In this document: positions 7,383 through 61,567 of the stretch, in pieces
How the letters are laid out: every line of letters starts with the position of its first letter
Numbering within the stretch: position 1 is the stretch's first letter
Assembly: GCA_965655095.1 (NCBI GenBank)
Contig: OZ296649.1
Coordinates: 15,996,001 to 16,060,000, forward strand
Length of the DNA: 64,000 bases
Direction of reading: 5' to 3'
DNA from: Haplodiscus bocki
Lineage: Eukaryota
Made by a program: the position numbers and the translations under genes
The notes under the pieces: model-generated
Database searches by the model: none
What the model saw: only the letters and a program-made list of their open reading frames with translations
What the model was told of the DNA's origin: nothing

Positions 7383-8903
7383 TTCTCTGTGGAGCGGTTA
7401 TTTCTACCACATTTCTCACAGGGTGGAATGACAGGTCTCGATTTTCTGTCTCTGTGATTATTTTTATTGTTTCCCTTGGTATTGTTTGTAACTTTGTTGT
7501 TGTTGGGGTTAGAGTTTGTTTGGGCGCTTCCATTGTTGTTATTGGCACTATTTGTGTTATTTCGTGTTTGGTCTTTCTCTCGTTTGAGCTGACGACACTG
7601 ATTTTGATAGTGACCTGGTTTTTTACAATGGTGGCACGTTGGTCTGTGTTTGTTAGAATTTTGCTGTGGAGCTTGTTGCGTCACAGTGTTTATGGGCATT
7701 TCATCTGGAGTTTCCGAACCATTTAATTCTAACTCCCTTTCAAGATGCGCCACAATCTGTTCTTACGTGCCGTTTTCCAAATGCGCCTGGTTAATTGATT
7801 TCTTCAGGTGCTGAGGCATTTTGGCATAGATGAATTGTTCGATGATCGCTTGAGCTGCAACTCGGAATGAGTCTTTCGCCAGTTTCTGGAGCTCATCTAG
7901 AAAATCAGTTACCTTCCGGTTAGCGGGGTTAAAGATCAGCCGTTGAAACTTGTGTTTTGCTGTAGCCATTGACTGGGGTTTCACGTACTTTCTACGGAAC
8001 ACAGTCATGACTTCTCCCAAATTCTCTCTATTAGGGATAGTGATGTTTTGGAACGTCTGTAGAGCATCATCACGCATGAGAGAGTGGAAGTAGTTAAAGA
8101 TGTCTTCCTGCGTTAGCTGATTATGGATTTTCAAACTCGTTTGGAACAGATCTTCAAACAGTTCGAATTTCTCTGATTTCCCATCAAACGTAGGCATTGT
8201 CGTTTTGAGGGATTTAGGCACCTTCGATATTCGGCTAATGTTGTTACTGAAATTGGCTGAATTGGAGTAGTCCACAACCAAACCATTAGCGTCCAAGAAT
8301 TATCCATTACTTATCCCAAAATTAGGCATTAGAAACACTTCTCTTGAAACAGACTTGCAGTGCTATTTTTAAGCATCAGCAATTTTAGGTGCAAGTGCGT
8401 TTGCATGTTTAAATGTGCACTTTAATTGAAAACAATCTCGTTCCTAACAATGTCAAATCATTTTAGCTGTAATTGTGAGGGTAGGTTTCGGTCACCATGT
8501 GCGAATTGGTTTCTGCCTCTGGGCTTTGGAGTTGACCAGAGTGGTGAGGAAAGTACCCCACTTCGGGGTAGGGATCGTTTGAGGAGCGATCCCCATGAGT
8601 TTCTCGGTTTTCTGAATTAGAGTCTCCGGACGTTCTGTGAGCGGCTACAGAACAAGTCCGAATTTGTGGGCTCAGAAGGAACTTTTGCAGTTTCGATAAA
8701 GCACCCAAGATACGTGACTCTATTTTGCTGAACTCCTTAGAGATTTTCTTAGTTACCCTCCTCTCAATCTGCTCGGAGACTTGGGAGATGTAATCTTGGG
8801 TTAACTCAGGGTCAAGTACAGTCTGTCCTCTACTGCTTTAACTGCCTTCAGGCGTTTCTCGTGAAACTGCCGCTAATTTCCTCTTGTTTCTCAATGTTGC
8901 CAT
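7244..8903 (-). pseudogene. gag: gag with CCHC zinc knuckle(s), interrupted
   Basis: Starts MATLRNKRKL at 8903. Capsid-like segment MPTFDGKSEKFELFEDLF (7763-8296). Knuckle CHHCKKPGHYQNQC and a degenerate CEKCGRNNRSTEKC (7244-7753). Its end overlaps the pol frame. Confidence 0.88.
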
Positions 8904-9997
8904 ACTTCTCGAAGGAAAATCTTGTCCGTGGTGAAGACTGAATTTATTTGTATTTTGTATTAATAAATGGTCTCCTCTAAATCTGAAGGAAAGAGTTCCA
9001 ACAGTTCAAACAGTCAAAAGGGTGATTTCCAAAGAATAACAATACTCAAAGTTGCAATACTTTATGAAAGGTACAATACCGAACGAATACATTTTATATA
9101 ATAATAATTGTACTTTCAGTTTTCCTATTTATACCTTTCCTTGGCGGTAAACATAATTGTTTACACGCCAGATCAAGGTACAAATAGGGAAAAGTACTTT
9201 TATCATATTATTTATCAAAGAAAAGGGATGCCGACTCTGGCCGGAAAAAAACACCCTTCCGTCCATTTCTTCCCTCACGGACCGCGTCTCTCCCATCTTT
9301 CGACAGGAGGGAAGTGCGGTCCGATGCGACGGAAATGGACATCAAAAGTGGTTATTCCCGCGACCACACAATAAACAAAAACATAAACAAAATATCAAAG
9401 TTATTTCCATACAGGGAATAAATACTATAATACAAGATAAAAATTAATCTGAAGTATGGAAAAATTAGGTTTATAATATAAAAAGATTCATGATTACATG
9501 CTGCATCAATTAAAACCACTGTTTGGAACAAACTAGGCCTATTTGCTAGCCCGTTCTACGTTTCTACCAGCTCAGGCTTCACTTTGGCCGGAGCGTTTAG
9601 TGGCAGCTACGTAGCCGCTTGTGGCACTGCCTTCCGCAGTGCTACTGAGGAGAATGATTCTGGTGGCTACGTAGACGTCCCGTGTCCGTCCAAATTGAAA
9701 CAGCGTAGTAGCACAGCGGATTGGCCGAAATTCTGGTGACGTCACCAGATTAGTTACGACGGAACCGATACGGAACAAATATTCACTTTTAAAGTCAAGC
9801 TCTGTTCTAATAGTTAAGCTATTGAAAATATGTTAGAACTGTCAATCTAAATAGATTACTGCACAATCAAAAAGGTGGATTTATATAATAATTAGTTAGA
9901 TTATTTATATAAAATAGCACCTAAAAGTAATATAAAATATACAGTTATTATTCGTTTGCTCCGCACTTATTCCGTCCCAATAAGGATCAGTTCACCA

Positions 9998-10273
9998 GAA
10001 TTACACGTATCGGATACGTGCTTTTACATGGAATAAATATTATGGGACGATACGTAACTAATACGTATCGTCCACATAAATTACATGTGTACGTACTAGG
10101 TGGATACGTATCTACTACGTATCCTTAAAAAAAATTAATGAGTAAATGATGCAATAAATGTTTGAGTAGGTAAGTTTGAGTGTTTCTACAGTTCTAATTC
10201 CTGCTTGATGGACCTGCGATGTCCTTTACTGCTGGGATCGTCTGACCGCAGGCTTTGCAGACGTGCTGCGACA
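9998..10273 (-). repeat. 5' LTR of element A (starts TGTCGC), followed by putative PBS TGGTGAACTGATCC (9984-9997)
   Basis: Homologous to 41019-41269. Homology ends exactly at TGTCGC in both copies, and a TGG-initiated conserved motif follows in both. Confidence 0.7.
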
Positions 10274-12169: not shown

Positions 12170-15100
12170 ACATGGCTCAGTAAAACGATATCCTAACTGT
12201 ACTGAAACCAAAGAAACCACCGAAGAAAGACAAGAGACAAAACTAAACTACCATCCTAGGAGGACAGTGCCACTGACGGAAAGAATATTTACACGAGGAA
12301 TTGATGGCTGGAGGGATTCAAACACTATAATAGAAGCTTACACTGAACGGATATCGGACCACTAATAAAAAAGCCTGTACTGGAAAATGACAGCAGAAAC
12401 ATGGACCTATAAAAAAAGCTTTCCTATGGGCAATCAACCCGGAGGCACTGCACAAAAAAACGAGAGCAGAATACCGCATAAAGCGGGAAAAAGGAAAGGC
12501 AGCTAAATTAGTGGCACACTTTGACAGGTGTTACTGAGAACAGCGAAACCAATTAACAACAGAGAAGACTTCATTTGGGAACAACAAGTCGAGAAAAAAA
12601 CTCCCAGAGACCCTTCGAAAAAAATAGTTGAACTGGAGTGAGAAAGAAAGTTCCCACACCCCAGCGAAGAACTTCCCAGACCAAACTACCTGATATCCAC
12701 AGCCGACAAAAAGTTCAAAGATAAACTCATTTAAAGAAAAGTAACTAAATATATCGAAAAGCGAAACCGTCATGCAACAGAGCACATACGAACGAAAGAA
12801 CGAGAAAATCAAGAAAAATTGACGTGCTAATCTCAAACAAAAAATAACACACGAAGAACGAACCGAAACAAAACGAACAAAAATTCAGAAAAAACGACGT
12901 CCGACTGAAAGAACTCATCGGAAGAAATTGCATATTTTGTGATTCGGTTAATTGGAACCACTGACGTAATTGTCCGGATTTTGAACAAACCTGTCACAAT
13001 TGCAACAAAAATGGATGCCTCGCAGACAATTGTAGATGGAAAACAAAAAGAACAAGTGTTGACCGAAAAAGTAAAACAAATGAAGCGTAGCAAGTACAGC
13101 TACAAAACATTCAAGAAATTTGACGGAAGGGATCCAATGTATAGCTTATTGAAAAAGTCATTACATCATGACCGTGAAAGTAAATGAAAGACCAACAACG
13201 AATAATTGACACCGGATCTGCAATTTTTTTGGTTTCACTGAACGAAAAGAACTACAACAAAAAAACAAGGGAAGTCGAAAAACAATTGTCAAAATAAGAA
13301 CAAGAACGAATCAAATTCATCCGAAAAACCGAAGTAGTAACAGAAAAAAACTGAGCTGAATGCAAACGACTGGTTCTCATAACAGAAAAAAAAACAAAAA
13401 CAGATCGCTGAAGGTAACTGATTCTCCACGGGATTTCAAAATAACCAGCAAAACATTCCAACCGAAAACAAAGGACCGGGAACAAATTTTAGAGAAGTTT
13501 GGAAGTTGTTCCAAAGGAAAGTGACAAAAGACTGGAATAAAGTTGTACTTTAAGCCTGCACAAAAAAAACAGATCAATCTCCTACCTCTCACAAAACTTC
13601 CTAGAAAAAAATTAGCAGACAAATGTCGATTGCGCATATCGAATAGCTCAATTGTGGAAGAACATTGTATCGTATCTCTCTTTGAAGGAATTGTGAGCAA
13701 AAACAACACGAGGAATACTTTGTTCTCTTAAAGTAAAAGAAACAACATGTGCATAAAAGTCGAAAAAGTTATGCAAACCTGGAAAAAATACTCAATTGGA
13801 TATCAACTTCAATGTCAAGCAGAAACAGGAAACCACTATAGATCCCAAAATTGAAGTGATATTACGCATTTGAACAAACGAAACTTTCACAGGAAAGGAG
13901 CTAACAATATCGATTTGCAATTACTGGAAAGAACATACGCGAATATTGAGATATAAAAAACTTTACAACGGCCTAAGCAACATTCAAACTAAACTCTAAC
14001 AGAAAAGAAACTGAACGTTAATTTACCAAACAACCGTTTGGTTGGACGAAATTTTTATAATCATGTCTTTTTTTAATCAGAAGGAAGCAAAGAAGACCAA
14101 CAAAAATAAACTTTTTGGAAAACTAAGAGGTTCAAAAAATGCCAATTCCAGAACGTGCTAGATCACATCTTTTCTGAAAATCAAAATGCCGTGACAAAGA
14201 TCGATGAGAATGGACTGAAACAAAACGGAAACAAAACAAAAGTTGTTTTGGAGGTGCATACATGAAACACAATACAAGAAAGATATTCATTTTTCGAAGC
14301 AATACGATCTAGAGCAAAATTGCCAACGAAATATCACAAAGGGCAGCAGTTGGACCGAGACAACTATTGGAGAAAACGACAGAGGAATTGGAATAAAGGA
14401 ACAAAAGCAGAGTATGAGAACATAAAACGGATGATCTCCAAATTCTCTTGTCTTACACGTTTTGCCGAAGACCTAAAAAAGCAACAACCCATCAACCCAG
14501 CAAGCAATACCGGCATAGGCAAAAGACTCTGACTGAAACTAGAAGGCGGAGCAAAAAACTGAGGAAATTTCGAAGTTTTTTTGAAAATGATAATGAAAAA
14601 AGATTAATGGAGGGTTTAGAATTGTTTGCAATCTTACCGGGTCCAAAAAGATTTACCTTGAAAAACTAAGGGAAAAGTATACGTTTATGCAGACTACGAA
14701 GCATTAGTGCCGCTGATGATAAGTAATCGATTCAACTTACAGTATCCAGAACGTTTAAGGAAATGGTCACACAAACTAATCCATTTTGAAAAACCCAAAC
14801 AAACTTTCGCCTATTATGAAATTCACCGATTACCTGAGAAATTATGAGAAACAAGTAACCAGGGAGAAACAAAAAACTGCATTCAGAAAATTAGTTTGTC
14901 TTTTTCTATTCAATTGACATAAAATAAAATTTGGAGAAACGAACTTGACCAAGAAAATCGAAACGACAAGAGTTTTCCTTAACAAAGATGTGCTACCGAA
15001 CTCAATTACACGTTTTTTCATCTAGCCGAAACAGCAAAGATTTCCCAATTAAAACGGAGAATGTAAATGGGAATAAAGAAATTGAAGTGAACTCTAAAAA

Positions 15101-16990
15101 CAATTGGATCCATCAGGCCAAAACTACTCCATTAAAAAAATCGAAACACCGAATATTGTCATTATACCAACTAAAAAACACAAAAATTTTGACAGAGTAA
15201 CGATATTCAATTCAAAAAGTCCATGATTTCTCAACAACCAGTTTGCCTGAATAACGGGATTACGTCAAAATTCGCACCAAAACTGACACTGGAATTCATT
15301 TTATTTTTTTGAAGACCATGTCGAAAGCGGCAATCAAGAAAACTAATTTCCATACATGAGATCGAAGCGTTGCGAAATGAAATAGTTAGGGACGAAAAAT
15401 AAGTGTCCGGGAACCATTCGTTCTATGCAGCGAAGAACTAAGATTCCAAGGCTCGGTACTAAGAGACTGTATTCCATTACAAACCTTGTCAGAAAAGTGT
15501 GAGCTACCTGACGGCCAGAAAAACTTGGAAGAGACGAGCTGATAATGAATGATTTAGAGCTGTAATAACGAAAGAGTGGGGAAAACCGATGCGGTGGGCT
15601 AATATTCGAAAACATTTTCAAAACAACCGCTAATGATTTAGTCAAAAAATCAGACACCAGAAACAACGAGATAGTATGAGGGGACAATGTCCCGATGATT
15701 GATTTCAAATAGTTTGGTGTCTTGGAGAAAACCAAACACTACTTGAAGATGAAATAAATCAGCCACGAAAACAAACTGGGTCCAAGGGCTCATGAGAACA
15801 TAACAAAAGCCGAATCAAATTTTGAGATTGTTGTGAAAACCAGCAATATCAGAAACACTCGGTTGATGCGGAAGTGGGATATATGAAGTTCTGCATTAAG
15901 AAAGGAAAAAAAGGGAGAAAAAATGCCGGATTACTACAAAGGTTCAATTTGAACAAACCATCAAAAAGATGGGGACTGCTAATTAGTGGAGACAAGAGTT
16001 TAAACGTGGTGAATCGCGGGACTGTTGTTGTAAACTTCTCACGTTTCTGTCACCAGGGAATAACGAAACCGGTGACAGACAGTTAAAAATTCTGATGATC
16101 AAAGTGTGAGGAAGAGCCATGAAAAAAAGATCAAAACTTGCACGTCATGAATGAGTTCCAGTAAGAATTCAAAATATCAATTTTCAATCACCAAAAAAAA
16201 ACGAATGAAATGTTCGGCGGAACTGCGACATGAAATAATACTCAATTTTTCCGGGAAATTGGACAGTCAAGGGGTGGGAGACGAACCGATTATGTTATTA
16301 GCGGTAGACTGGTTCAGCGAATGGCCATCATTGGAATAAGATAAAAAGATGAAATCAAAGATGTTATCAAACGTTCGGAAGATTTTTAAAACCTACACCG
16401 CGTGCTAACAAAATATAAAAAAGGTTGAAGACAGTACTTTTTCATCAAAAGAACACAAAGTGGTCTGTAAAAGCAAAAACATCGAAGCCGAAAGTTGTAT
16501 ATGCGGATGACGTACTTAGACAGAACAGTCGAATGGGCTGTTCGGAGATCGAAAAACAGTTTTTTTTGCAATATTGATCAAGAAAACCGGACTCACCAGC
16601 AGTGTGGACTCAGCAAAACGAATCATGCTGTTTGGGAATCAGAAGCGAACATAAAAAGTACCGTTCAATGTTTATCACGGATGTAGGCAGCGAACGAAAA
16701 CAATCAAATTTTTTAGAGACCGTGAATTTTTCTTCTCTGATTGATCCGTCGAACTTTCAATTTTTCTTAAAAATACCTGGTTAACATTGGACATCATTCT
16801 GATCAAAAACTCGGTTGGTACGTTTTTCTTGTAAGATTCAGCATCATTGCATTTGAGAGCAAGACAACTTAGTGACATCTCCCAGGTTTCAATTGATTTC
16901 CGTTGCACTTTTGTTCAGAGATAATTTACTGGCGGGCATGAACCTAAATATTCAAAGTTTCGTGCAGAGGGGGGTTGTACTGTTCTACGG
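12170..16990 (+). mobile_element. Highly degenerate Ty3/Gypsy retrotransposon (element B)
   Basis: Zinc-knuckle remnant CHNCNK (~12990); integrase remnant LNFSGKL...LLAVDWFSEWP (16151-16339); purine tract AGAGGGGGG followed by TGTAC near 16967-16980 (PPT and LTR start). No long ORFs remain. Confidence 0.6.
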
Positions 16991-17002
16991 CTAGTCAATT
17001 GA

Positions 17003-17690
17003 CTACTTACTTTCTGCGTATTCGATAGCTGTTTTGAGATGTTGTTCAACTGTCCAAGCTTGTTCTCTTAGTTGAAAGAAGAACGATCCAAAGAATTTAG
17101 AGCACCCATTTAGTGTTCGGAACTTTTCGCCAAACAGATGGGAGAGTTCTGTAGTTGTGCAAATAGTGTCCTCAAAAAATTTTGAAAATTGAAAAGATTT
17201 AGATTTCAAGACAAAAGAAGAGAACTTGCAGAAGTTTGAAAACGAGTCTCGTTTGTAATTCTCTGTGAGAGTGAAGGAAAGTTGTGAACTTCTCATTTTC
17301 CGTCCAACCGCTCAATATTTCAAAATTCAAGGTTTTCTCAAATTTATCGCCAAAAACGGCAGGCATAGGGCCGAGGCGTACCAATTATTTTGATCGCAGT
17401 TTGAAGGAGCAGCAAAAACGGTGTTAGCATGACAAGTGTCAAAAATAGGACTTGGAGATTTTCACGGAGTACCGTTCGTTAAGCAATCAGGTCTAGCGCC
17501 GAAGGTAAGGTGCCGGCAACTAGAAAGGCATCGTTTAAATTTCGTTCTAGGCATGTAAACTTTGTCTTGAATTTTTCAAACTTGCAATTCGAGCTCTGTA
17601 ATCGCTGTCACACTACAATTCCTTGAAAATGTAAACTAATAATTTTTATTTCACGTTGTTTAAAGTTATCACGGTTCAAAATTTGCTCTT
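17003..17690 (-). repeat. Copy 1 of a ~690 bp diverged duplicated coding segment (copy 2 at 30278-30960)
   Basis: Shared blocks include TTTAGAGCACCCATTTAGTGTT, CCGTTCGTTAAG and CGCCGAAGGTA. Both copies end at a minus-strand GTAA splice donor. Confidence 0.8.
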
Positions 17691-17699
17691 ATTTTAACG

Positions 17700-18245
17700 G
17701 GGTAAGTCGTCACCCCACTGATAATGATTTGAAACCGATGTTGCCACCATCGGGATCTTTAAGGGACCATCCATCAGTTTCACTAAAAGGTGTCTTATGA
17801 GTGATGTAGTAATAGCAGTGTACTGTGGTTTTTGTGGTGGAGTCAGCCGCAGAATTAGGTCAATTACGCTCCTGCGTCTTTTGGTGATTCAGCACGTGCG
17901 TCCAACTGTTACAGGGTTCCAATTGATCTCTAATTTCGAGACATATCGTTTTGGGCCTGAGCCATCTTGTAAAAAATCAACAAAATTCCTAGCAGAAGTT
18001 GTCAAAGAAAATGTCGCCAAAGTGTCAATAGTTGAAGCTGAACCAAATAGATAGGGAATGAGGTAAAATTTGTATCCATACGGGCGGGACATAAAAATGG
18101 GGTTACAAATTCTTGTGGTGAGAACATTTTTCGTCCATGTCCAAAAACAAATACCTGGCAGAGTAAAGAACGAAATTCACGGATGACACTTACCAGAGAA
18201 AAACCCTGTATTGCAAAGTCCAAGCTGACAAATTTGATCGTTCAT
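17700..18245 (-). pseudogene. TRAF-type MATH domain ORF (frameshifted)
   Basis: ICNPIFMSRPYGYKFYLIPYLFGSASTIDTLATFSL..RNFVDFL and, after a frameshift, WLRPKTICLEIRDQ. These match the TRAF-C pattern S.PFY...GYK.....Y.NG...G.HLS.F.....G.YD.LL.WPF..K..L.L.DQ. Confidence 0.65.
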
Positions 18246-18270
18246 TGATGCATATTGAGATTATAAGGCT

Positions 18271-18274
<4 letters not shown>

Positions 18275-18303
<29 letters not shown>
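18275..18303 (+). repeat. (AG)14 microsatellite
   Basis: Read directly from the sequence. Confidence 0.98.
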
Positions 18304-18305
<2 letters not shown>

Positions 18306-19478
18306 TGCGTAAAAGTTTCGGAAACAAAACGTTTTACTGAACATTTCTTCCCATTTTCTAAAGCCTTTAGGGAAGTAATTATAGAGTAGCAGTTGATTGA
18401 GAAATTTTAATTTTCTGAGGATGAAGGAGAGTGAAATTGCTTTGAAACTATTATGATAGTAGTTGAAAGATGGTGCTTCCGGTTTTTTGGTTGTGATGTG
18501 AATACTAAGTAGTAGAAGGGTTGATTGTATCGAGCATGCCGGCCAAAGTGTTTGGTTTCTGTTCGGATAGGTAGTTTTTGTATGCTGAGACGAGTCATTT
18601 GAGGTCCCACGTGTGTTTTGAAGAGGATAAATTATGATAAATGGCAGGTGATTAGAGTCTTTTTTCGCATGATGTTTTTGCGAAAACAAAGAATAAAAGA
18701 TTTTTAACGTTAGTGTGCGATAAAAGACCGAATTGGGACAACGAGTGGCCGGGAAGGGAGAAGAGTGTTCTGGGTGGTGATCTCTTGTCTTTCAATGTCC
18801 AGAAAGAATTTTCCCACGAAGCAAACTCTGCTCTCAGTTCAGAGTGTAAATGAGAGTTAAATCTGGGGCTTACTACTGGTGATGCCAAAAAGCAAAGTGT
18901 TCTCCTTTATGATGCCGAGCAAGGGCTACCCGGTCCCCTCTGCCAAGGCTATCACTTTTTCCCTGTTCGACGAGGCAAAGTCGTCTTCGAGGTTGAATAC
19001 GTTTGTCACTAGGAGGCAAGGAATTTTGTTCACTTTCTCGAATTGTTGACGACAAACCAAGAGGTTCAGAACGACCAGTAGCCGTAGTAGCAACGGAGTT
19101 CGTGGCAACGCAAATCATGTTTGGAGTCGCAGGGACGATGTTCAGTTGGGCGTCTGCAGAAGCAAGTCCAGCTGGAAATGTTGTTGTGAGAAAGGGTGCT
19201 GGAAAAAAAGTAAGCACAAGATCAATGGGATGTTCCAACAATGCGAGCGCGCTTGCGAATGAAAGTCTGGTTCCACGTCACCGAAAATTAGTAGATAGTC
19301 GTCACTATCTCGCCCTAACTGAGATGATTGAAGATCTAAACGTCGGAAAAACAAAAGCGATGATGGTTCAGATTTTAAACAGGCGACATAATAAGTGTTG
19401 CAGAGTGTATGGCAGAATAGAGGTGCTTTTTTTCGTATCCTGTTACATATCTTGAGTGTCTTTTGTTACACATTAGCT

Positions 19479-21465
19479 TTATTCCGTCTGCTCAAAAACG
19501 ACCATGGCTGGGGCACGAAGGTTTTCTACGGACGTTAGATGGGATGTTAGAAAGATGTTAAAAGAGGCACTCAGGAGGGTCCGACGAAACTCTGAGTAGA
19601 GCTAGTGATGTTCTCTCTTCTCTTGGATTTCACTATCATGACTACCATGTCGATGGATAGTTAAAGGATCAAAAAGACTGAAAAGTAAAACCCGCATTGT
19701 CTTAGCACGTAGACAAAAGGTCCAAAGGTGTCTAAGACCTGATCGCTAAAATACCAAAAAGAGCTGATTTTGTCTACAAAAAAGTAGTTTCTTGTGATGT
19801 AATAGCCGAAGACGTCAGTTCTTTCTGGAGGAAGAGTTTATACGGTAAGATTCTGTGGAAAGTTCTTCAATGCTGTTCTCAAAGCAGCAGTAACTAGAAT
19901 TTTTTCCCAAAATCCTCGAGGTTCACTTCAAGGTTACATCCCAGCGTCTTGGACTGCGGTGAAAAGATAACAAAACTGGCTTTTATCTCGAAGTGCAAAC
20001 TCTACAAGTTATTTCTGGTGTACCATGCCAGGAGTCAACTTTAAACAAAATTCTTCTTGGTCCCTGTCGAGCTAGAAATTGATCATCGTCCCATCAGAGC
20101 AATTCTGAACATTGGGTAAGTCTGTCGTGTAATGACATCAACGACATGAATTTCACCTCTGTGTGGGATTGGATTTTTATCGTAGCAGTGGATCGTTGTT
20201 TGAAGCCGGGATTGAAACTTTGAGCTTTTTCTAGCGAAGCTAAGCTGCCATCTGTTTCTTAAAATTTTTTCTGATCTCCATTACACATTCAACATGCCCA
20301 GCGGGGTTTTTTCAGTTCAAGTTTCAAGTTTGTTAGGGTCTGAGTATTCACCTGCTGTCACTGATTGTGTAGTAACTGGATCTTTTTTCCTCGGATTAAA
20401 GGCGATTTTTGGATGAAAAAGTAATCATTGTTTGTTTGAGCTGCATCTTATAGTCCCTAATGAAGTCGCTTTTACTGCATGCTGCTTGTGACTTATGCGT
20501 CGCTACCATTTTGGGGATTATGGGTAAAAATGTGACCAAAATCGTTTTTCTCCATCGCCATCAAGACTTTTAGGTTTTTAGTCATGCCTTTTTTTTCTCA
20601 ACTCGTGTTCCATCCAGTGTCTAAGTCGAGAACTTCGCTCAAACAATTCATATAGAATGAGTCATAATGTGTTTAAAAAAGCGTGGGCTTTCTGCAGTGT
20701 TTTTGAAGATTGTTTTTGACTTTGAATTGGAATTCAAAATTGGAATCAGGTCTAACGATAACGTAAAATTTCATGTTATGTTTCACCGCGTTCACTTCTG
20801 CAATTCCGAGAAGTGAGAGCTCGCGAAATCCGGGTAGTCTCAAGTGTGAGCGAATGTGCCCCTGAATTAGTTTCGCATCCCAACTCCTATAAGTTTTATG
20901 GTAAAATTTGTCCTGCTTCGAATAAAATTCTCCCATTTTCCTTTGCAGGATCAAACGTTGTTTGCATTTGAGTTAGAAAAAGGTCGACTCCTTCGCAACA
21001 CAAACATTTCGGTTATAATCACTGTAAGACTAAACAGGTTTGTCTTGTGTGAGTCAAATTCCATTGAAGGGTCTGGCAAGATAACATTTTTCCTTGGAAA
21101 GTTTCTGACATTGTTCGAAAGAAATGACTATATCTGTTGTATTTTCAGTAAAAGAGTTGTCACTTCTACTGTGACCGTCCGATCCACAGTGCATTTTTTT
21201 GTTGTTGTATTCGAAGTTTCAATGCGTTCAATTTTTTTCCGGAAGCGCTTGTTACAAAGTGTGTGTTTCGTTTTGCTGATTTGAAATTCTTGTTGTCTGA
21301 TGTGGCTTGGTTGTGCCTGGTTTGCTGCGTAGAGAGTTATTTTGTGTCACGTCACTGCAATCGAATTTGTCCACTTTCAGAGCCGGAGCAATATGGTCTC
21401 CGTTTGGAACTAAATATTAAACTAAATGTACAAAACTACAAATTTTTGAGAAAGATTGACTTCAT
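19479..21465 (-). pseudogene. env: env: chuvirus-like class III fusion glycoprotein, decayed
   Basis: Signal-like start MKSIFLKNL*FCTFSLIFSS; KFDCSD (~21360); MHCGSDGHS...ISFEQCQKL (21100-21194); C-terminal TM region FGPFVYVLRQCGFYFSVFLIL*LSIDMVVMIVK (19630-19727). Total length is about 2 kb. Confidence 0.6.
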
Positions 21466-21479
21466 GGCTGATTTTCTCT

Positions 21480-22772
21480 GCGGAAAATTCATCTCTTTTT
21501 TTTCTGAAAGGTAGCTATCGAAAAGACGTTGTCAAAGCAGGCTGTAAAAAGAAACCGGCAGCTTTGTTGCCAAAAACACAAAGCTGGAGCTACGTTTTTT
21601 TTGTAGTAAGTCAAATACTGGAAAACAACGAGATTGTTATTGACTGGACTGAAAATGGTGTTCGAAAAGTGCCAAAGGAAAATTTCTCTAACCTCAATTT
21701 TTGATTTGAAGCTATGAAAATCAGCTTTAGTTCGTGTCATACTTTTTTATCCTGAGCCAAGGGTCATCGGTTGACATTGGAGAAAAGGCTCTCTTGAAAA
21801 GTGTTTCTGAACCGGACGGTCTCGAATGAAGATCAGGAAGTTTTACGATTTCAAACAAAGCCGAGGGAAGGTTAGTTAGGTTTTCCGGTTCCAGTATAGT
21901 GAGTTTTTGTTCCAAAACCCATATTGAAGTTGTCGCAGACACTGCATTCCAATAACAATTGGTCTGTCTTCCCGCCAGGCGAAATTCATTTTTTTCTCAA
22001 GTTGATTACTAGTTGCCGTGTACTTCCAAAGAAACTTCGTGTTCAGCTCAAGTGTAATAAATTTTCTGGATGCATGCAGAATGTTCATTGATCTCTGCTA
22101 CCGGGCGGAAAATCTTCAATTTTCTGTCATTGTGTTGTTTCCACGCTCCTATGTGAAGAGTTTTAGAGCGATTAAATTCTCAACAACAGTCTGCATTCGA
22201 TATTTTTGTATGCTCTTGTTCGTAACAATTTTCGATTGTTTTGCTTCCGAAGTTTCGATTTTGGCTTCCGGCTTGTGCCGGTATTGGGTTTTTGTATATT
22301 TTTTCCGCGGCTAATGTTCTGATTCTTTGAAGCACTAGATTTTCACCTATACTTCGTTAATAGTTTCCTGTGTTTTTTTCAAAGTTCTCGGTAGCTGGAT
22401 TATAGGTTACTCATCTCACACTTTAATTATTTCGTTGACTTGCAGGAAAACAATTGTCATCTGGTTGGTGGGAATTTTCCATTGAAAAAAACCTGAGAGT
22501 GAAAACTCGTGGTTTTTTGGCTGAATTGAAGGATACAAAAGAGCGCTAATTTTTCTTCTTTCAACTCTCTGCAGTTGTGAGCAAATGTTTTTAGTTGAGT
22601 ATCGGTTCAGGTTAGCATTAGTTGCTCTCCGGTTCGATCCCGTTAATGAATATCTGACTTACCTGATAATAGTGTTTCAAATAATTCCTTTTCTGAAAAA
22701 TATCGTTTGCTAACTGATGAGTAGATGAACAAAAATTGGGAAGAGGATGAAGAAAGAAAAGGTGTTCTTCAT
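21480..22772 (-). pseudogene. Second accessory, signal-peptide-bearing (env-like/secreted) ORF, decayed
   Basis: Begins MKNTFSFFILFPIFVHLLIS (hydrophobic leader) at 22772. Collinear ORF fragments at 21876-22088, 21727-21942 and 21489-21740. Confidence 0.4.
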
Positions 22773-24282
22773 TTCCTTTCAGCAGGATAATTTTCAACGG
22801 CTTTTTGCAACAAAGTTTATTGTCGTCGATCTTCTTTTGTTATGTTCGGCTTTCTTTTGTCGCAAGCAAGCCTCCTGGGGAAAATCGATGAAGGTGTCTA
22901 CATGGTCGGCCGTATTTGACGGTGGTAAAAGAAGTTACTAAACAACATTTTTTCAAAGATTTGAGGGTTCTAGAAAACTCTAGTAGGATGGTGGGTCTGG
23001 CTCCTTTGCAGTAACGTCTTCTCTTCGTCTGTTCTTTGTTGTTGCAGAATGACAAAGTCACCGCCCGTCGTTTTGTACGTGGAAGGATTAAAAAGTGAGA
23101 GTCCTTCCCCAGACCTTTCTCCCTTCCATGCCACCGCAAAAGAGTCATTCGTGGTTGACTTTTACAAATCTGGAGAGCCCTAATTTTTGGCAGGATGGTT
23201 GGATAACCTTTGTGAGTCTTCAACCGGGAGAAACCCTGCCTGTCGTCCCGCAGTGCACAGTGTTTGTAAGATTTCGTGTCTTCGTGAAAAGTCTGCATGG
23301 GATCACGGGGAAACTTTGGTTTTAGCTCCATCTGGTAGGGTTTGTTTGGTCGAGCGTCGACCGATATTTCCCGGGTACCTCCGACTCACAGAGGTGAAGA
23401 GGGAGGACACTGTTCAACTTAGTGGTGCGAGATCTTTGGAAGAATTCCAGGTGCGTCTGAAAGTTCTGGCGGAAGCAGGAGGCTTCTGTGGCTTGGGTTG
23501 GGCAACTCCTGCCGGCAGGGTTATGCCTCCGAAGGTTTAATTCAATACCAATCTACTAACACTGTGCATGGGAAGCATCAAGATAGATTGGGATTGCACT
23601 CACAAAGACACAAAAAACTTCCGTTGAGAACCATCTAACCATCTGTTGAGTCATCCTAATCTTTTAAGAAGTAATGTCCTAGCTGACCTGAGCTACGTAT
23701 AGACTGAAATAAATAAAGAGATAATTTTTTTATATAAATAGTAGGAACTCTTCCATAAAAAGCTCAAGGTGATCAAGTGAACAATAACACAAAACTTTGC
23801 CACTTTTGGAAACTCCAAATTAATTTGAAGGTTGAATTTATCAGGAGAACAGACTTAGAATCGTGTGGAGACATAGGTGTCACATATACGGTTAGAATCC
23901 CGGTCGGATAGTTGCAACAGATTTTAGTAACGAGGATTGTCTGCAGATCAATACCGGACAGAGAAGTGGCCGCTATCCACAGACCATCAGGGTAGATGTA
24001 GTGATTTTCAGGTTTTTGCTCTAGCTTAGAAAACATCAAAGTAAAAGTGAACCCGGGGTTTTTCAATATCTTGAACAACAAAGCATTTCGAGAAGCCTTT
24101 TTAGTGTAAGGAAGGATTAAAAACACTGTTTAACTGTGAGCAAGTACTTTTCGGATTTGATAGCCTTGGCAGGTGCAATTATGGATTAACGAGTAGGATT
24201 TGAGTTCGTTTGATTGAGTTCTTCAATGTTTTGGCTCCGTGGTTACAGTTTCGTTTGTTACGTATAAATTGTTCGATCGTAG

Positions 24283-27200
24283 TCAACGGCTTGGTAAATG
24301 GTTAAGTTGATAGTTGTTGACTGAAGATAAGTTTTGGGTAATATAGAGAAGCGAAATTATCGGGATTATCAGGTAAAAACGGCGAAAATAATTAAATTGA
24401 ACCATAAGGAAAATCACTGCTGGCGGGGCTGACAGGTTTCTGTGTAGTAACTGTCGGAGCCATAGCAAGTGGGCCAGCCAGGAAAGCAATGTAGTCACCG
24501 TTGATTGGTTCCCTAGAGCTGTTAATCTTTCCAATGCGTTGTTCTGAAAACTTTTCAAAAAAATTGTCATGTCTTTGGTCCCTTGGCACCTACTCATCGA
24601 TCAACGCAGTTAAAGAATCTTCTTTTGTATAATACTCAACCAAGTGATTGCGATGTACTGTTTGCAAAACGGATGGGACTTTATCGTCTTAGATTTGATA
24701 AGTATGGCTAGTTATCCACTTGCTAACCGCGAATGAGCCCAATCGGCGTTGCTGGAGTTTTTGCATTTTAGAAGAGTCTTGTCTTTGAGCTTCGTAAAAT
24801 AGTTTCTGACCTACTTCCAAGTGATGTCCCACTTGAAGCTTCTTTCTGCAAGCGTAGGCACGGGTTGTTTGTTCAGGCCATAGTTCAGGAAGTGAAGAAC
24901 AGTTGCGTCTGAAATCAAGTTCTTCATCAAGAAGAGCTTGAGACAGCTGGGGTCGGAGGAAGTTGTTAAGCAGTTCAAACTTTATAGATGTGAGTAGTTT
25001 TAATGAAGAGGTAAGCGTGTACTGTTTTCGAAACAGCACGTTTTCGTTTCTAGAAAAGGCTTCTTTAACAGGCATTGGTGTTTATGGTTCGCTTCCAGAA
25101 ACAATCTCTTTGGGTGTTTCGCTCCTAATGTAATTAACACTAGTACTGAGGGCGAAATCAAGTTTGGGCGCAAGAAGAGCTCAGTTGGTAACAGCGTCGT
25201 TCGAGAAAGTTCTCCATTAACGAACAATATGCTGGTTTTTTGTTTCCACTTTGCCATTCGTTCAAGACGAGTGTACAGATCATGAGCGGGCAGTTTTGCC
25301 CATTTTTTTCAGCCAGTAATTGAAGTCAGTGTTGAAAGGTACGGTTCTTTTGTTGTGTATAATAGACTGGAGAGTTTTGAAAAGAGGAATCCATTTTGCA
25401 ACCGCAGCATTAGTAGCTTGCGCACCAGTGTTAGTAACAAGGTAAACCATCAGAAACCGACAGAAAGGGAAATATTAGGAAAGATTGTGTATTTCGAAAA
25501 ATAGGTGGGTGGAGGTATTCTGTATGGTCAATTTGTATCGTACAAACCGAGGTGGCGTTCCCCTGTCGTTCTTCCAGAAGTACCTGGCGTAGGTGTTTCG
25601 GTTCTGGTTGTTTGGTTTGAAAACCAGGGTAGTCGGTGGTCACAGCGGAGATCTAGTCGAACATGCTTGGCCAGTATTAGAATGGTTTAGCGTTAGCATA
25701 GGTTATAGAGGCTCCGATGTATCCACTCATCTCCGTGTGATGTCCCAATCAGAAAGAGGAAAAAACGTGAGATAAAGGCTCACTGATTCCCACATTGCCT
25801 TTGTGTAGATTACCAAAAAGCTCGTTATTACAAAAGAGTTGTCTTGGTTGTTCGATGACTGAACTGTTGACAATTTTGTGGTAACCTCTAGGTTGTCGAT
25901 TTTCCGCTGTTTTTGGGTCAGCGGATTTACCTTCTTGAATCCGGGAGCCTGCATATATGAGCACTGGGTCCGTGAGTTGCTCTTGTGAAATGGACGAAAT
26001 ATCAGAGGCTATGACTCTTGCAACTTCAACTAACTTGATGATCAAACCCTGAGTTCCAGATGAGGGGCATCGCTAGCTGACAGTTATTTTTTGTCTAAAG
26101 AGGCGTCAGGTGTGCCTTATACCGAGACATGAGCAGTTCAGGCTTTGTATAGTCAGTAATGAGAATTGGCTTTGTTTATGCAAATATAGCCTACCTCGTG
26201 CCTGTTTCTATCTTCATCTTTTTTCAAAAACTCCTCATCGTGTGAAGGAAGAACAGTTTCTTCAGCCTTTGTTGTACCAGATAAACTACTGGAAGTGTAG
26301 GTTCCCTAAGGGTTTTCAGATGGTGGTGAAGAGACAAGCGACTGAGATCTTCAAAACCGACGAAACTGGTTTATGGACTAATCCATTCGGATACAGTCTG
26401 CGGTTGACTGAACTTAGAGCGTTAGAAAATCGGTGTTGACCCTTTTAAGAGAAACGTGCTGTTCATCGTTGTGCATGCGAAGTTTCGTTTAGTCCTTGCT
26501 TTGATGGCTATGAATTGAGTAAATGTCGTTACCGGAGTCGGTTGAGTTATACTCGTGTTTCATCTTTTACGTGACAGGTTGGCCAAGTTGATCAAAAACT
26601 GGATCTTTCCCCAAACTTCTTTGCTTTCGTTGGCGATGCGGGTTTTTGTCACTTGTTACCTTTTGACTGAGTTTATCTGGAAAAACAATGTTAGATCTGG
26701 GGTCCGTATAGTTTTCGAAATTTGGAATTTCGGTATTATAACTTGTCTTTCGACAAAATGGTAAGGCATCTTTCTTCTCGTCCCCGTAGGTGGAAGATGG
26801 GTTTATGATTGTGATACGAAAAAAACTGGGAAAAGGGAATGAAATATGTAGTGCTAGTAAGTTTGTAAAGCTGAGACAGTTTCGCGCAGCTCACCGTGGA
26901 ATGTTCACACATTCTGTTCATCTTTTTCGAATTTTGAGAAGTGAAAGTTATTCTCCATTTCCTGTCTGGAAACTGATACTTAGGCAACATCCGGTTCCAA
27001 CGTTGGAGAAGTCCACATGAATTTGGACATGATACTCAGTAGACGGAATTGCGAGAACAGTGTCTTCGCGAAATATAACTTTAATCAATTGGAATCTTCC
27101 TTCGTGTTCGCTTGTCCAGCAAAACAAAGCCGAATCTCCAATGAGTTTGTGGAAAATCTCGCTTTCTACATCAAAATGGTGTCACAACTGTAAAATCCAA

Positions 27201-28300
27201 GGAATCCCAACACCTTCATAACATCGCGTTTCGACTCAGGTGATTTGATTTTTTCTGGATCCTTGACCTGCGTAGCGACTACTTGTTGCCCATCGGAGGA
27301 AAAATTATTTCAAATAAATTTTTACTTTTTTGAAAAAAGAAAATGGTTTCTAGAACGCAATTCTCAGGTTGTTTTTCAGAAGCAACTTTTGATACTCTTG
27401 AATGATCGAAAAAAAGTTGCCTTTAACCTGACAATTAGCTCGTTTGCTTTCCTGATTCAAAATTTAAATCTTTCTTTGTTGGTTACGTCCAAAGAAAAGA
27501 ATTTCATCTGTCGTTGAGGCAGCTCTTTTTTGATGATTTCTCCTATTCACGATCAAAATCGGAATATCGCCCGAGTCAGTTTGAATTGAATAAACAGAAG
27601 GTTCACGAAAGTGAGACCGGTTGATACCGCTTCTCCTTCGTGTTGGAAAGTGGATCCAGAAAGAAAGTGAGATATCGGATTTTCAAGAGAGTATTTCCAG
27701 CATGTGGCCGTTTCCGCCTCAACGTGACTTTTGGAGAGTAATCGTACATTTAAAGTCCGAGAGACGTAAGGAAATGTTCTTGTTTCGAAGAAGGTTACCA
27801 TAACAGACAGTTTTAGGGAAATGACGCTTTTGGATTACTTGGTCAGTCAAAAATTAAGGGCGAAACTTGGCCTTGACACAAGTCCATCCCATTGTAGTTT
27901 TGCACTTTCATTTCGATGATCCAGGCAGGTAACGGAAGGGAACCTTCTCCGTTAGGATCATGGCTGAAATTTTTACCAGCATAATCAATCATGGGCAATT
28001 TTTGTCCCAAATATATTTTGGTGGGTTAGTTTGCTACTTTTATGCAACATTCTAGGATGTTGAATTTGAGAGATCTCTCTAAAAATGCGGCAGTTAATAA
28101 ATCAGCAGAAGTCTTCAGTGTCTTGCAAAAATTCAATTTTATCTCCACTATCTTTCTTGGCGTCGCTGGTGGCAAAACAGAAATTATTGAAGCTAACTTT
28201 TGAATTGATAGATGGTCCGAGCTGCATTTTGGAGACCTCAGTAGTTTAATGGACGGAAATCCGGCAATTACTTGGTAGAATGTTCTCAAGAAAAGAGGAT
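24283..28300 (-). pseudogene. pol: pol remnant of element C
   Basis: RNase H and integrase/GPF-like motifs as above, with many stops and frameshifts. The RT core is not clearly recognisable. Confidence 0.75.
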
Positions 28301-29166
28301 GAAAGCATTAGAGTTGGGTTGGTTGTTAGTTTGCGGAAATCTTTGCTCATAAAACACAAAATTGTTAGATTTTTGACCATTAGGTCTCCGGAAAACTTAA
28401 AAATCAGGCGTGTTTGATTGTGATGACTGATGTGGCTGATTTTGTGATGGGTTTTGTCTTATAAAATTGTCTGTGAATGTGATGCGTGTTCATTCATTGT
28501 TCATTTTCGTACCCGTTTTTTCCCCTGGAAATTTGTTGTGTACATTGTGGCCAGAGTGATTGTTTTACGTAGTGCGGTTTTGTCGTTTTGTTATGGTTGG
28601 GGTCGGTTCATCGTAAGTCTTCTAGTTCGCTTACTCTGTGTTCCTGTGGCTCTGAACGAAGATCTTCCATTTTTTGTCCCAAAGATTTCAATTCCGTGGG
28701 AACCGTTTGCCCCATCAGCAGTTAAAATTTCATAAAAAGTGAAAATAATTTTGCCAATTTGATAAGCAGCGCGTCTGGGTTAGCACTCATCAATCGTTAG
28801 GAATCACAATCTCGGTTTTAGAAATTCGAATGAGACTTGGGAGGGTTAGAGGTTAAGGTGGAGTCAGTAGAAAAGCCACAACAGTAGCAAAAGAAAGCTA
28901 TGCTTAAATCACGCTTCATCCAAAATTGGTCAAGATAGATTTGCACTGAGTCACTTGAAGAGACTTTGTCTTGATTTTCGAAATTCAGCTCCAGAAACTC
29001 CAAGTATGAAGATCTAATTGTTTTTTATTACCTAAAAATTAGGAAAACGACCAAAACTGATATCAACGAGCCTGAAGAAATAAGCACATTGGAATCCAGT
29101 GTTCTGTAGCTTTCGCTCATACTTTAACATCATCATATAATTTCAGCGTCACTGGTCGGACCACTT

Positions 29167-29459
29167 TGTGGCACGGAATATGAGGATGGAACTTATTCAG
29201 TTCATTTCGACTTTCTATTCAAATTTTTCTTTACGGTCTCAATGGCGCAACTCGTCAATCAGAGAGGTGCAACCGCTGTTGCTAAGTGGAGAAGTTTAAG
29301 TCTTAAAGTTGCCTTGCCGGCCCGCGTGAACAAAGTAATGCGTGAATTCACAAGCTAGGACTTGGATGATTGTTAGGTAGCGGTGAGTGTTTGAGCAAGA
29401 ATAAATTTGAATGAATGGTAGCTAGTTCAATTTTCAATGCACTAAGTTCTACGTTCACA
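29167..29459 (-). repeat. Putative 5' LTR of element C
   Basis: Bounded by inverted TGTG...CACA ends. On the minus strand it is followed 3 nt later by TGGTCCGACCAGTG (PBS-like), upstream of the gag/pol remnants. No partner LTR was seen. Confidence 0.5.
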
Positions 29460-30277
29460 AAACTCCAAGACAACGATTTCAAACATGAAGCTAACATTGC
29501 TCGATTAGACGGGGAATTCACTTTTTTACTGTCTAAGTAGAAGTAAGCAACCTTAACATTTATCAGGTCAAAAAATCCAAAGTGAGTTTCATTAGCAACC
29601 TCAAACTTTGCTTTTTAGGATAAAATACAGTAGCACATTTTTCTATCACTAGGAAAACATTTTTCGCAGATGAATGTAGCTCCAGAGTTTTTAGTCTTCT
29701 TGAACCTCACAAACAACAATAGAAAGTTTTTCGGCATCAATTAGTTGCGGTCTTTTTATTTCCTTTTAGTTAGGGCGAACAGTATAATCATCCATTTTGT
29801 AGCTTTTTTGTTGTATAAGTAGTTATTTACTTTGTTTTTTTAGTCCTAAGACCAGGTAGTCCGAATGACGAATCAACCTAACGAAGTTTTTCATGTCCCG
29901 GTTTTAACTTGTCAACCCAGAAGAAAATCTAGGATTCTTTTTCTACTTGGTTCTGTTCACGATCAGAAGATGGGTTAGCAACCAAGACGGGATAACTCGC
30001 GTTATGGCGTAGCAACCGAGCGATGTCTCTCAAAATTCAGGAAGTTTCCATCGGTTCACCCTCGGACCTCATTCTGATCAGGAGTTGGGTTAGGAGGTTT
30101 TTTTGGAATACTCAACATCATTGCACTCGAAAGCAGGGCCACTGATTGACTGCTCTTAGGCTTCAGGTGATTACCGTTACGTTCTTATTCAGAGACAAAT
30201 TACCAACGGGAGTGATCCAAAATATTCCAAGTTTCGGCTAGAGTGTGGTACTCTTCTAGGCCTAATCATCTAAATAT

Positions 30278-30960
30278 TTACTTTTCGCTGTTTTAATAGC
30301 TGATGCTAGATTTTGTTCAACTCTCTATGTTTGTTTTTTTTTGTTGTAAGCAAAACGATTGAGACGTTTTAGAGCACCCATTTAGTGTTTGGATTTTTCC
30401 GCCAGTTAGGTTGAAGTCTTTTGCAGTTGTACAATTTGTCTCCTCAAAATCTTTAGAAATGGTTGCAGATTAAAGTTTCAATATAAAAGAAGAGGATTTG
30501 CAGAAATTTAAAAACGATTCCCGTTGGTGGTTAACAGTGAAGGAACGTTTTCAGATTCACAATTTTCGTCCGGCCACTCAACTTTTCAAAGTTCAAGATT
30601 TCTCGAAAGTTGTTGCCAAATATGGTAAGCATGGGTGCAAGACGTACTAAAGATGGTGGTCACAGACTGAAGGAGCCCAAAAAACGGTACTCGCATGACA
30701 AGTGCAGAAAATAGGAGAGTTTGACGGAGTTCCGTTCGTTAAGAAATCATGTCTAACGCCGAAGGTATGGTGGTAGCAAATAGAAGAGCTTCGTATACCT
30801 TTCCTTCTAAGCATGTCAACGAATTTTCGATGTTTTCAATTGTGCACTTCCAATTTTCTTATCACTCTCACACTTCAATTCCTTCAATATGTTAGTTACT
30901 CTTTATAATTTAATTACGTCATTGTTTAAATTTAGCACGGTTTAAAATTGGTTATCGTCA
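30278..30960 (-). repeat. Copy 2 of the duplicated spliced coding segment (see 17003-17690)
   Basis: Collinear similarity with 17003-17690. Confidence 0.8.
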
Positions 30961-31867
30961 TTCCTAACTCGACACGAGAATGCAACAAATTGATTATTTG
31001 AAAAAAAAAACAGATGTAGTATAAGCTCTTTCAGGAACACTCCATTCTCTATGGAGGTAATTTCAGTACTATGGGTTAGGTTCTGTCGGATCTGAATAGG
31101 TTTGTCTTTTGAAAGAGTGCCAATTGAGCCTATGGTATGCAATTTCTCAACTGGTTAAAGTTTCGAGATTTGTGATGAACATGCTTGTAGATTCAAACTT
31201 TTTTAGACGAACCCTTTTCTTGCAACTGTATTTTTCTGGCAGATTGTTAAAAAACGGGTGGCTTAATTAACGAAGGGCTACTTTATTGCGTCTGTTTCAA
31301 AAGTTGTAATGGGTTAATGTTTGCAGTTTGTTCGTACTTCTGAAGCTGTCGGGTCATTGATCACCTAATACAAAATCCTTGAGCTTCAATTTTTCATTCA
31401 GTCTTTCGAACTGTTAACTGGATCGGACTGAATCCTGAAAATTTGGAAAATTTTCGAAAAAAGCCCAGAACTAGAAAAAACTAAGAGCTAAAAATGAGCT
31501 GAAATAATTCTTGATACGTAAATTTACTATATTCACGTATTTTCAGTGCCGCGTATCTTTTATCACATAGTGGCATGTTTAACGCCATCGACCCTTTACA
31601 GGGTATTTGACTGAATTATTTATCCACGATATGGCTATAGTTTATAAGCTATATCAATGTATTGAATATACACTCGGCTTTTCTGTTAACTCTAACCCCC
31701 ACACCATAGAAGATATGCGAAATACTAAGCGGCGCAGTGCTTTAACTCACGCGCGAGCGTACTTTAGCCAATCACAGACGAGTTTTCTTCTCAAGGGGGG
31801 GCACCAAAAATCTTGTTACTACTAGTGTGCGTGTAGAGGGGGTGGGAGTTTGTAGAAAGGATTCACA

Positions 31868-34464: not shown

Positions 34465-35545
34465 CCGGGTCGAACTATTTTGGGAAAACGCCGCTTTTTT
34501 CCGGTATGGTGGCGTAAACACCGCTGACGCCGTTAACTTACAAACAAAAGGCCGTTAACGCCTTCATACCGACAAAAAAACGCTGTTAACGCCGTTAGCG
34601 TTCCGGTTGTGCGCCGTTAACGCTGTTTCACCAGAAAAAACTTGTGTCTCCAAAAAGCTGATTTTCTCAGTCCATGAAGATTGAGAAACTCATGGTCAAT
34701 CATTTATTTGACAAAGGATTACGAAGCTTTTAGAGAATATTTCCACGAAAGTGTGGGAGAACTGCAGGGGACTGGAGTCTGGGCCTGAACGTGGCGGCGT
34801 TGGTAGTGTCATTGAACTTGTAATGGCCAAGGAAGTTTACCAAAAAATTGATCATTTTACGACTTGACTATTTGGAGTCTTGCAGAAGTTTTGACAGCTT
34901 TAACCTGGAGACCTCTCTCAAAAAATTTTTAGTTTAGTAGTTCCTGCTTACAAGGTCCATCTTCAGTTGTTGCCTTCGAGGTTTTGTGGTTTGTTTGCTT
35001 TGGTCTCTATTGCCAAACGTGAAAGTTTTGAGTTTTTAGGCTGAAAGAATCAAACGGTTATTAGGTGAAACCAATATTTTCGGAAGGACCTTCAATTTTT
35101 GTATTTTTCTTTGTAATGGTGGAGCGCTGGATCTTCTCCGAAACGTGGTAGACCTGTCAGTGTCATTGACCATGTCACGACCAGCTGAGACTACATAAAA
35201 TTTGAGCATTTCAAGACTTGACTTCTCAATTCTGGTTTTGCAAAGTTCCAACCGTTTTGATCTTATTTCCTTTTTTTTTAAAGTTTTGTTTAGTTTATTT
35301 CTTACTGTTTACAAGGACCATATTCAATTGTTGTATTTAGGGGCCGTGTGTTCCACTGGGTTGTTTGGTCTAGGCTAGAAATATATTACTTTATACCGAC
35401 AAAAAAATGCCGTTAACGCCGCTATTTTTCCGGTTAAACGCCGTTAACGCCGCTCTTTTCCGGTTAATAACGGCTTCTGTGGCTAATTTTGACCGCTGTT
35501 AACGCCCTTATACCGGAAAAATTTCGGCCAATATCTTGACCCCGG
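34465..35545. mobile_element. Non-autonomous DNA transposon (MITE-like) with TIRs and subterminal GCCGTTAAC repeats
   Basis: Ends CCGGGTCGAACTATT ... AATATCTTGACCCCGG form an imperfect inverted pair. Clusters of (C)GCCGTTAAC(GCC) lie at 34490-34625 and 35395-35515. Confidence 0.75.
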
Positions 35546-57637: not shown

Positions 57638-57666
57638 TCCTAATTTGCTTTCTTTCATAGATTAGA

Positions 57667-58161: not shown

Positions 58162-58185
58162 TCATTACAAAAATAGGCGAGCTCG

Positions 58186-61549: not shown

Positions 61550-61567
61550 TTGGCTATAAAGTGAAAT

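Follow-up and report, generated by a model that had tools for sequence, protein, structure and literature searches.

The segment between positions 19375 and 21465 of the window (the whole 64,000-nucleotide stretch of DNA analyzed here) is very probably the dead env gene of an old Ty3/Gypsy gag-pol-env insertion of the HSV/gB-type errantivirus kind, with the env inherited together with the pol lineage. The gene runs on the minus strand from a Met codon at 21465 to a stop codon at 19377–19375, both read from the sequence, and comprises about 697 codons. The first-pass annotation had recognized an env here, but its length of about 660 codons, ending at 19479, was too short by about 100 nucleotides. 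All env motifs quoted in it are present on the minus strand, with FDCS (21365), HCGSDGHS (21191), and ISFEQCQKL (21125) in one frame and YFSVFLI (19687) in another; no frame is open across the region. They align to conserved positions of the family, namely cysteines 39, 97, and 123 of P0025, the closest of the relatives mapped to the region, as well as its transmembrane helix.

In tblastn, the match to P0025 covers its residues 8–717 (21452–19378 in the window), with 301 of 592 aligned codons identical (50.8%, counted over ungapped single-frame pieces), and the same 592 codons are interrupted by 17 stops and no fewer than 8 frame changes. The intact relative P0002 yields four collinear HSPs with a joint E of 3e-96, the region is matched by 204 of the 209 relatives mapped back to it, and the best env piece scores 149 bits, whereas none of 200 triplet shuffles of this DNA exceeded 25 bits. 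Among the 14 cysteines conserved across 46 relatives, seven are kept in the window, four are changed, and three are not covered. Uninterrupted gag, pol, and env frames are absent, pol being also in pieces, and the copy in the window is a dead element and not an active errantivirus. Since a contig reproduces the frame breaks, the decay of env is genomic: one contig of 11,045 nt (run X1) spans 18315–29326 with 12 other letters and four gaps relative to the window, and a contig over pol and env from run X4 (sample and study of X1) has 17 other letters and six gaps, both runs being possibly the window's own source and thus no independent support. Contig depth is flat over the locus, which indicates a copy without close siblings at the DNA level. 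Between 92 and 94% of sampled env-region words are present in four public DNA data sets, all from one organism and one study.

Table 1. Features of the decayed element and its flanks, in window coordinates.
Feature	Positions	Strand	Basis or remark
0.9-kb direct repeat, downstream copy, candidate 3' LTR	16789–17683		72% identical to 30064–30949
Stop-free frame of 134 codons after env	18876–19277	minus	no similarity found
env pseudogene, PF24664 / class III (chuvirus-G/gB-type) fusion glycoprotein	19375–21465	minus	tblastn with intact relatives; tree
Transmembrane block, one stop inside	19630–19693	minus	aligns to hydrophobic segment 603–633 of P0002
N-terminal motifs FDCS/HCGSDGHS/ISFEQCQKL	21100–21365	minus	each with a conserved Cys, family positions 39, 97, 123
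Decayed signal-peptide region	21415–21465	minus	aligned to hydrophobic N-terminus, residues 1–23, of P0025
Stretch between integrase match and env, 3.07 kb	21466–24535		~2 kb longer than the L003 interval (~1 kb)
Decayed integrase (zinc-binding, core, SH3-like part)	24536–25796	minus	tblastn with L003 integrase, joint E 8e-50; 29–41% identity
Decayed RT C-terminal part and RNase H	26357–27430	minus	E 5e-17; 28–51% identity to L003 pieces
Decayed aspartic protease region	27607–28215	minus	tblastn with L003 pol, E 4e-04
Possible gag remnant, weak	28593–28694	minus	24-bit ungapped match to L003 gag; not significant alone
0.9-kb direct repeat, upstream copy, candidate 5' LTR	30064–30949		72% identical to 16789–17683

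A search with the main frame, its stops read as X, returned four relatives among 7,968 candidates, the best being P0002, an intact protein of 717 aa (E 4.5e-57), and an unindexed search with the window env returned 72. In turn, P0002 retrieved 202 clusters among 4,821 candidates, with up to 850 members per cluster, and P0203 retrieved 38 relatives with identity down to 28%; among 46 aligned relatives, identity goes down to 25%. Seven of the 15 members listed for the P0002 cluster are 717–719 aa long. From sequence and prediction, intact relatives have 14 conserved cysteines, sequons, a signal peptide, and a single C-terminal transmembrane helix, and they occupy the env position; the hydrophobic segments occur in each of P0002, P0025, and P0191. 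A quick tree of 28 rows, selected among 236 proteins and L004, was built with no viral outgroup and used for subfamily placement only; both halves of the window env group in it with P0002, P0020, P0023, and P0025 (SH-aLRT 100), on long branches of their own. Judged by sequence, the window env appears to be an old dead copy in the P0002/P0025 subfamily, which still has full-length members. We infer from P0005 (a mosaic protein described below) and from the many broken copies that the nearest relatives stem from this host or from one close to it.

No named virus or named animal element is found among the 120 clusters listed of the 202, or among the 38 or 72 matches, and sequence searches with family members returned no viral glycoprotein sequence. 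Scans of viral contigs with P0002, A2, and P0191 confirmed no relative among 14, 22, and 5 pattern matches, respectively, while a metagenome scan with the family alignment yielded four loci (L001–L004) from 36 pattern matches. No paper on this particular env family was found in the literature covered, subscription papers and Repbase lying outside that coverage.

The frames of the window env, with stops read as X, match no Pfam env family, each of them holding only a part of the gene; the type of the protein was therefore determined on its intact natural relatives. The earlier assignment of a chuvirus-like class III env rather than a baculovirus-F-like one is supported by them. The profile PF24664 (Monjiviricetes_fusion) is matched by all 27 aligned relatives (alignment A1, E 0.01 or better, best E 7.7e-44) and spans most of the protein in the intact ones, with 131.7 bits for P0002 (E 3e-38, curated cut-off 27 bits) and 94–130 bits for the env of L002, L003, and L004. 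All 120 clusters listed of the 202 match it as well, none of the 120 being named. In the Atlas, the clusters nearest to P0002 are those of PF24664 (0.97), followed by gB and rhabdovirus G, at a recognition value below the threshold of the tool, and a comparison of P0191 with unnamed clusters gave a best score of 0.84, to be taken as a lead only. Neither the window frame nor profile A1 retrieved anything significant from the PDB by sequence.

The AlphaFold2 models of P0002 and P0025, built from alignments of 27 and 46 rows, reach mean pLDDT values of 48 and 66, respectively, and pTM values of 0.32–0.33; they include a β-rich region (60–300), a helix (353–397), and a transmembrane helix near residues 601–639. 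A PH-like domain with an inserted elongated β fusion domain, as well as a long central helix, is predicted for both proteins (matches over 59–305 and 35–516), the β-rich PH plus fusion domain at pLDDT 65–92. A Foldseek comparison, which the first-pass annotation had proposed as a check, was run on these two models and gave class III matches, the best not being class I. Against BFVD, the model of P0025 matches first the glycoproteins of Tacheng tick virus 4, of chu-related viruses, of a xinmovirus, and of Wenling crustacean virus 14 (E 2e-29 to 6e-25 and 13–16% identity in the ten best rows), with herpes gB at rank 15 (E 7e-17); the weaker model also finds chu-/xinmo-like G, with a best E of 3e-17. 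Against the PDB, the best rows are herpes gB, the GP of Dhori and Bourbon viruses, and baculovirus GP64. In the exhaustive VIA aligner, run over 48,161 chains, each of the first 11 rows is a class III fusogen, with a best Z of 7.4, which the tool places in the common range; whole-chain TM-scores are low (0.10–0.26). Each of these searches is modest when taken alone, and it is because the fold searches agree with the profile match that the profile and the predicted fold of the relatives support a class III fusogen.

The solved class III fusogens (herpesvirus gB, rabies and Chandipura G, thogotovirus GP, baculovirus GP64) share with the models the PH-like domain, the inserted fusion domain, and the long central helix, whereas the family is only 6–14% identical to them (Z no higher than 7.4), has one predicted PH-like domain region, and is known here as monomer models. 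The best predicted-fold matches are glycoproteins of Chuviridae, Xinmoviridae, and related viruses (Tacheng tick virus 4, Wenling crustacean virus 14, Drosophila unispina virus 1), from which the family differs in being encoded by retroelements, about 60 residues longer, and only 13–16% identical, with no single viral family standing out as the donor. The models suggest that the label "HSV/gB-type" hides nearer relatives, as the predicted fold resembles chu-/xinmo-like G much more than it does herpes gB. A class I protein of the baculovirus or paramyxovirus F type, like the env of Drosophila gypsy, is extremely unlikely. The single class I row in VIA, Newcastle disease virus F (Z 4.6), covers only 51 residues of the central helix; against it stand the β-rich PH plus fusion domain, an F-type Pfam family in none of the 27 aligned relatives, a furin-type R-x-K/R-R site in none of P0002, P0025, and P0191, and the two BFVD searches, in which none of the top 50 rows bears the name F protein.

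The attribution to a Gypsy-order element in the first-pass annotation is supported by a decayed Gypsy-type pol upstream of env: protease, RT/RNase H, and integrase follow each other on the minus strand in the order typical of Metaviridae (Table 1), and PF17919 (RT_RNaseH_2) is matched at E 1.2e-06, just under its curated cut-off. BEL/Pao elements have the same order of protease, RT, RNase H, and integrase, so that the order does not separate the two groups. In the related element L003, a record of 13.2 kb, gag is followed by protease-RT-RNase H, then by integrase, and then by a PF24664 env, after which come further ORFs. Its Pfam matches are PF03732, PF13975, PF00078, PF17919, PF17917, PF17921, PF00665, and PF24626, with no other family at E 0.01; we take these profiles to be Gypsy markers, BEL/Pao being expected to show Peptidase_A17. 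The pol of L003 is 28–51% identical to the window pol pieces upstream of env and 22–27% identical to the other Gypsy element of the window, and its env shares 38% identity with P0025. Two distant elements thus combine a related pol with a related env, which points to long joint inheritance and to co-descent of pol and env, on the basis of these two elements only. The pol of L003 is split at 5162–5204 into two overlapping frames before the integrase, either by a real frameshift or by an assembly error.

The regions around env and pol are less clear. The stretch between the integrase match and env contains no Pfam match in six frames, no similarity to L001–L004 or to the rest of the window, and no long repeats. 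The stop-free frame after env may be the remnant of an accessory ORF, comparable to the ORFs that follow env in L003 (9651–12095), L002 (2541–3493), and L004 (2868–3356); the two long ORFs of L003 have a short internal motif in common, as seen by eye, and sub-threshold Pfam matches of the coiled-coil type. Direct repeats of 0.9 kb flank the region 13.3 kb apart, their ends having no clear terminal signature. Their level of divergence (72% identity) would, by our estimate, fit the decay of env, and they match no Pfam family, whereas their translations resemble what we take to be LINE ORF2 (the endonuclease end and linker). They may be an LTR pair or two LINE-like ORF2 fragments. Neither a primer-binding site nor a target-site duplication was identified around the element, and Rfam and tRNA scans gave nothing. 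A 70-base piece at 29296–29365 has a contig depth several hundred-fold above its surroundings; in other copies of this piece, the plus-strand sequence just before it is a string that begins with TGG and resembles a tRNA primer-binding site, and this string is absent from the window and from L003.

The long frames of the window are transposon genes, belonging to a Gypsy element at about 2.7–10 kb and to a Polinton-like cluster at 57–63 kb; the DNA is most probably that of an animal. The former (2698–10082, minus strand) is less decayed than the element described here and belongs to a different lineage, with gag including a zinc knuckle, protease, RT, RNase H, and integrase; it scarcely matches the middle pol, and the 2.7 kb past its integrase contain no env. 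Its 5' 1.4 kb recur at 39668–41105 (73%), beside a 200-base N gap (39468–39667). The first 144 residues of P0005 are 79% identical to the start of its gag (8472–8903 and 39668–39925 in the window), and the remainder of P0005 is the middle of the env family, so that, by sequence, this protein appears to connect the two families, either as a chimera or through an internal deletion. At 491–1939 on the plus strand (50% GC), antisense to the left-hand element, lie three stop-free frames of 144–276 codons that overlap each other, the longest having no Pfam match. The cluster at 57661–63421 (plus strand), which we take to be Polinton/Maverick-like, includes a Pox_A32-type ATPase (58177–59307, E 6e-07) and a retroviral-type integrase (60339–61457, E 1e-06), with other ORFs around them. 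Short imperfect 31-base repeats and a duplication spaced by 827 bases are present at 34516–35521.

The env might also not belong to the upstream pol, a nest or chimera having placed the env of one Gypsy family, such as that at 2.7–10 kb, beside the pol of another. The integrase–env gap of 3 kb, compared with about 1 kb in L003, the joining of the two families in P0005, and the unproven status of the LTR pair would agree with such an arrangement. However, pol and env are on the same strand, in the expected order, and similarly decayed, the upstream pol belongs with that of L003, a lineage carrying the PF24664 env family, and the left-hand element has neither an env within 2.7 kb past its integrase nor similarity to the middle element in pol. 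A chimera is thus improbable. Even less probable is a free-standing EVE, in which the mRNA of a chuvirus glycoprotein would have been copied into DNA and inserted a single time, next to transposon remnants with no relation to it. Arthropod EVEs flanked by LTR fragments are described as common in the available parts of PMC10084718, and the locus, by its flat depth, is single-copy at the DNA level. The copy nests, however, among the numerous full-length members of a large multi-copy family (202 clusters, and the tree), the gag-pol-env element L003 contains an intact member, and the minus-strand frames of 15000–31600 contain no RdRp or nucleoprotein family.

The proposal of an independent capture of env by the Gypsy element is not supported in that form: L003 shares the pairing of pol and env, and Gypsy elements with such an env have been published (PMC13524379). 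Inheritance within an old lineage that already bore the env is more likely than independent capture, and from the sequences a capture, if any, would be old and ancestral to the whole clade. In the accessible parts of that paper (Chary and Hayashi, eLife 2026), Gypsy elements with a Chuviridae-like or gB-type env are described in many animal groups; the 114 such elements, in which a glycoprotein like the Chuviridae-like one of mosquito BEL/Pao elements adjoins a gypsy pol, were found with mosquito BEL/Pao baits, no global tree is given for the gB-type env, and the entry of gB-type errantiviruses is described as unknown. In mosquitoes, Anakin is a Pao element that captured glycoproteins 25–50% identical to chuvirus G, according to the parts of Dezordi et al. 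(2020, PMC7642597) consulted, and PMC12440569 appears, as far as its available text goes, only to restate this case. Six endogenization events, as well as gypsy fragments beside such glycoproteins, are described by Dezordi et al. (2023, PMC10084718, available in part). Like the element in the window, Anakin is an LTR retroelement with a chuvirus-like glycoprotein of the gB fold in the env position, as reported in PMC7642597; it is a BEL/Pao element, though, whereas the pol here is Gypsy-like, and the 25–50% identity range given there for chuvirus-derived EVEs is not reached, the ten best structural alignments having 13–16%.

An origin that differs from the preferred explanation in the source of the gene only is that the ancestor of the clade took its glycoprotein from a jingchuviral or other monjiviricete RNA virus, separately from BEL/Pao elements (Anakin) and from the other gB-type errantiviruses. 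We regard this as possible, though rather unlikely. RNA-virus glycoproteins (E 2e-29) rank well ahead of herpes gB (E 7e-17, rank 15) in the fold search, the family looks like a separate clade with no named animal-element or virus protein among the matches listed, and several endogenizations of Jingchuvirales glycoproteins have been published (PMC10084718, as far as available). On the other hand, the gB-type envs already published are also described as Chuviridae-like in the accessible text of PMC13524379, so that the same fold ranking would be expected of them, and missing names are weak evidence for a separate clade, since most of the proteins searched are nameless. The identity to viral G (13–16%) is far below the 25–50% of mosquito chuvirus-derived EVEs (PMC7642597, available in part). 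Moreover, the top fold rows mix Chuviridae, Xinmoviridae, and other lineages; as the best folds are common to Chuviridae, Xinmoviridae, and other Monjiviricetes at 13–16% identity, no donor can be named. That the family forms a deep, undescribed clade of monjiviricete-type fusogens within one Gypsy lineage, either captured separately or sister to the source of the chuvirus and xinmovirus glycoproteins, and present in many hundreds of copies in an unsurveyed animal group, is a wider reading that we consider unlikely.

The preferred explanation, an env long inherited with its Gypsy pol, brings the element close to the HSV/gB-type errantiviruses. As described in the available parts of PMC13524379, these share with it multi-copy families, a length of 12–15 kb, and a Ty3/gypsy pol with a class III env after it; this env has a signal peptide, conserved cysteines, and a single transmembrane helix, and it lacks a constant furin site. 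The arrangement of gypsy pol followed by class III-type env is present here, with the pol in the window, the type of the env determined through intact relatives, and an intact example in L003. The difference is that the copy in the window is dead and would fail the intactness filter applied in that paper. Six motifs of the env family are absent from its supplements (table cells longer than 400 characters covered in part), and acoel names do not occur in its available text or in seven of its supplements, which says nothing about the host. The host may lie outside the phyla surveyed there. By analogy, the element would have worked like a gB-type errantivirus, the testable features being present except for intactness; the published elements are divided into pol clades and cysteine-bridge classes (C1–C3).

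Class III fusogens act as uncleaved trimers, the fusion loops of which insert into a membrane, and refolding of the trimers merges the membranes. The intact env would have been a type I membrane glycoprotein of about 717 aa, with a PH-like domain, a β fusion domain, and a central helix of about 45 residues. In the manner of gB, VSV G, and GP64, its uncleaved trimers would sit on Gag-Pol particles, insert their fusion loops, refold, and merge the membranes of particle and target. We can speculate that such fusion would let the element pass between cells, for example from soma to germline, as does Drosophila gypsy. The env gene would long have been inherited with the pol lineage rather than captured by the element in the window, whose copy would have decayed neutrally and would make no functional protein.

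The locus itself is a fossil of little weight, and the pairing of a class III env with a Gypsy pol is already known, the copy in the window adding a member. The family, in turn, enlarges the known range of gB/chuvirus-type retroelement envelopes by a divergent and apparently large group, its 202 clusters including several that hold hundreds of members. It bears on the open issue of whether there was one pre-Cambrian acquisition of env, as argued, with no global tree, in the accessible parts of PMC13524379, or whether there were repeated captures from RNA viruses in arthropods, the opposing view of PMC7642597 and PMC10084718 in the parts available. If the reading as a deep separate clade were true, the family would represent a separate origin of an infectious retroelement and would provide a test case for the direction of transfer of class III fusogens between RNA viruses and retroelements.
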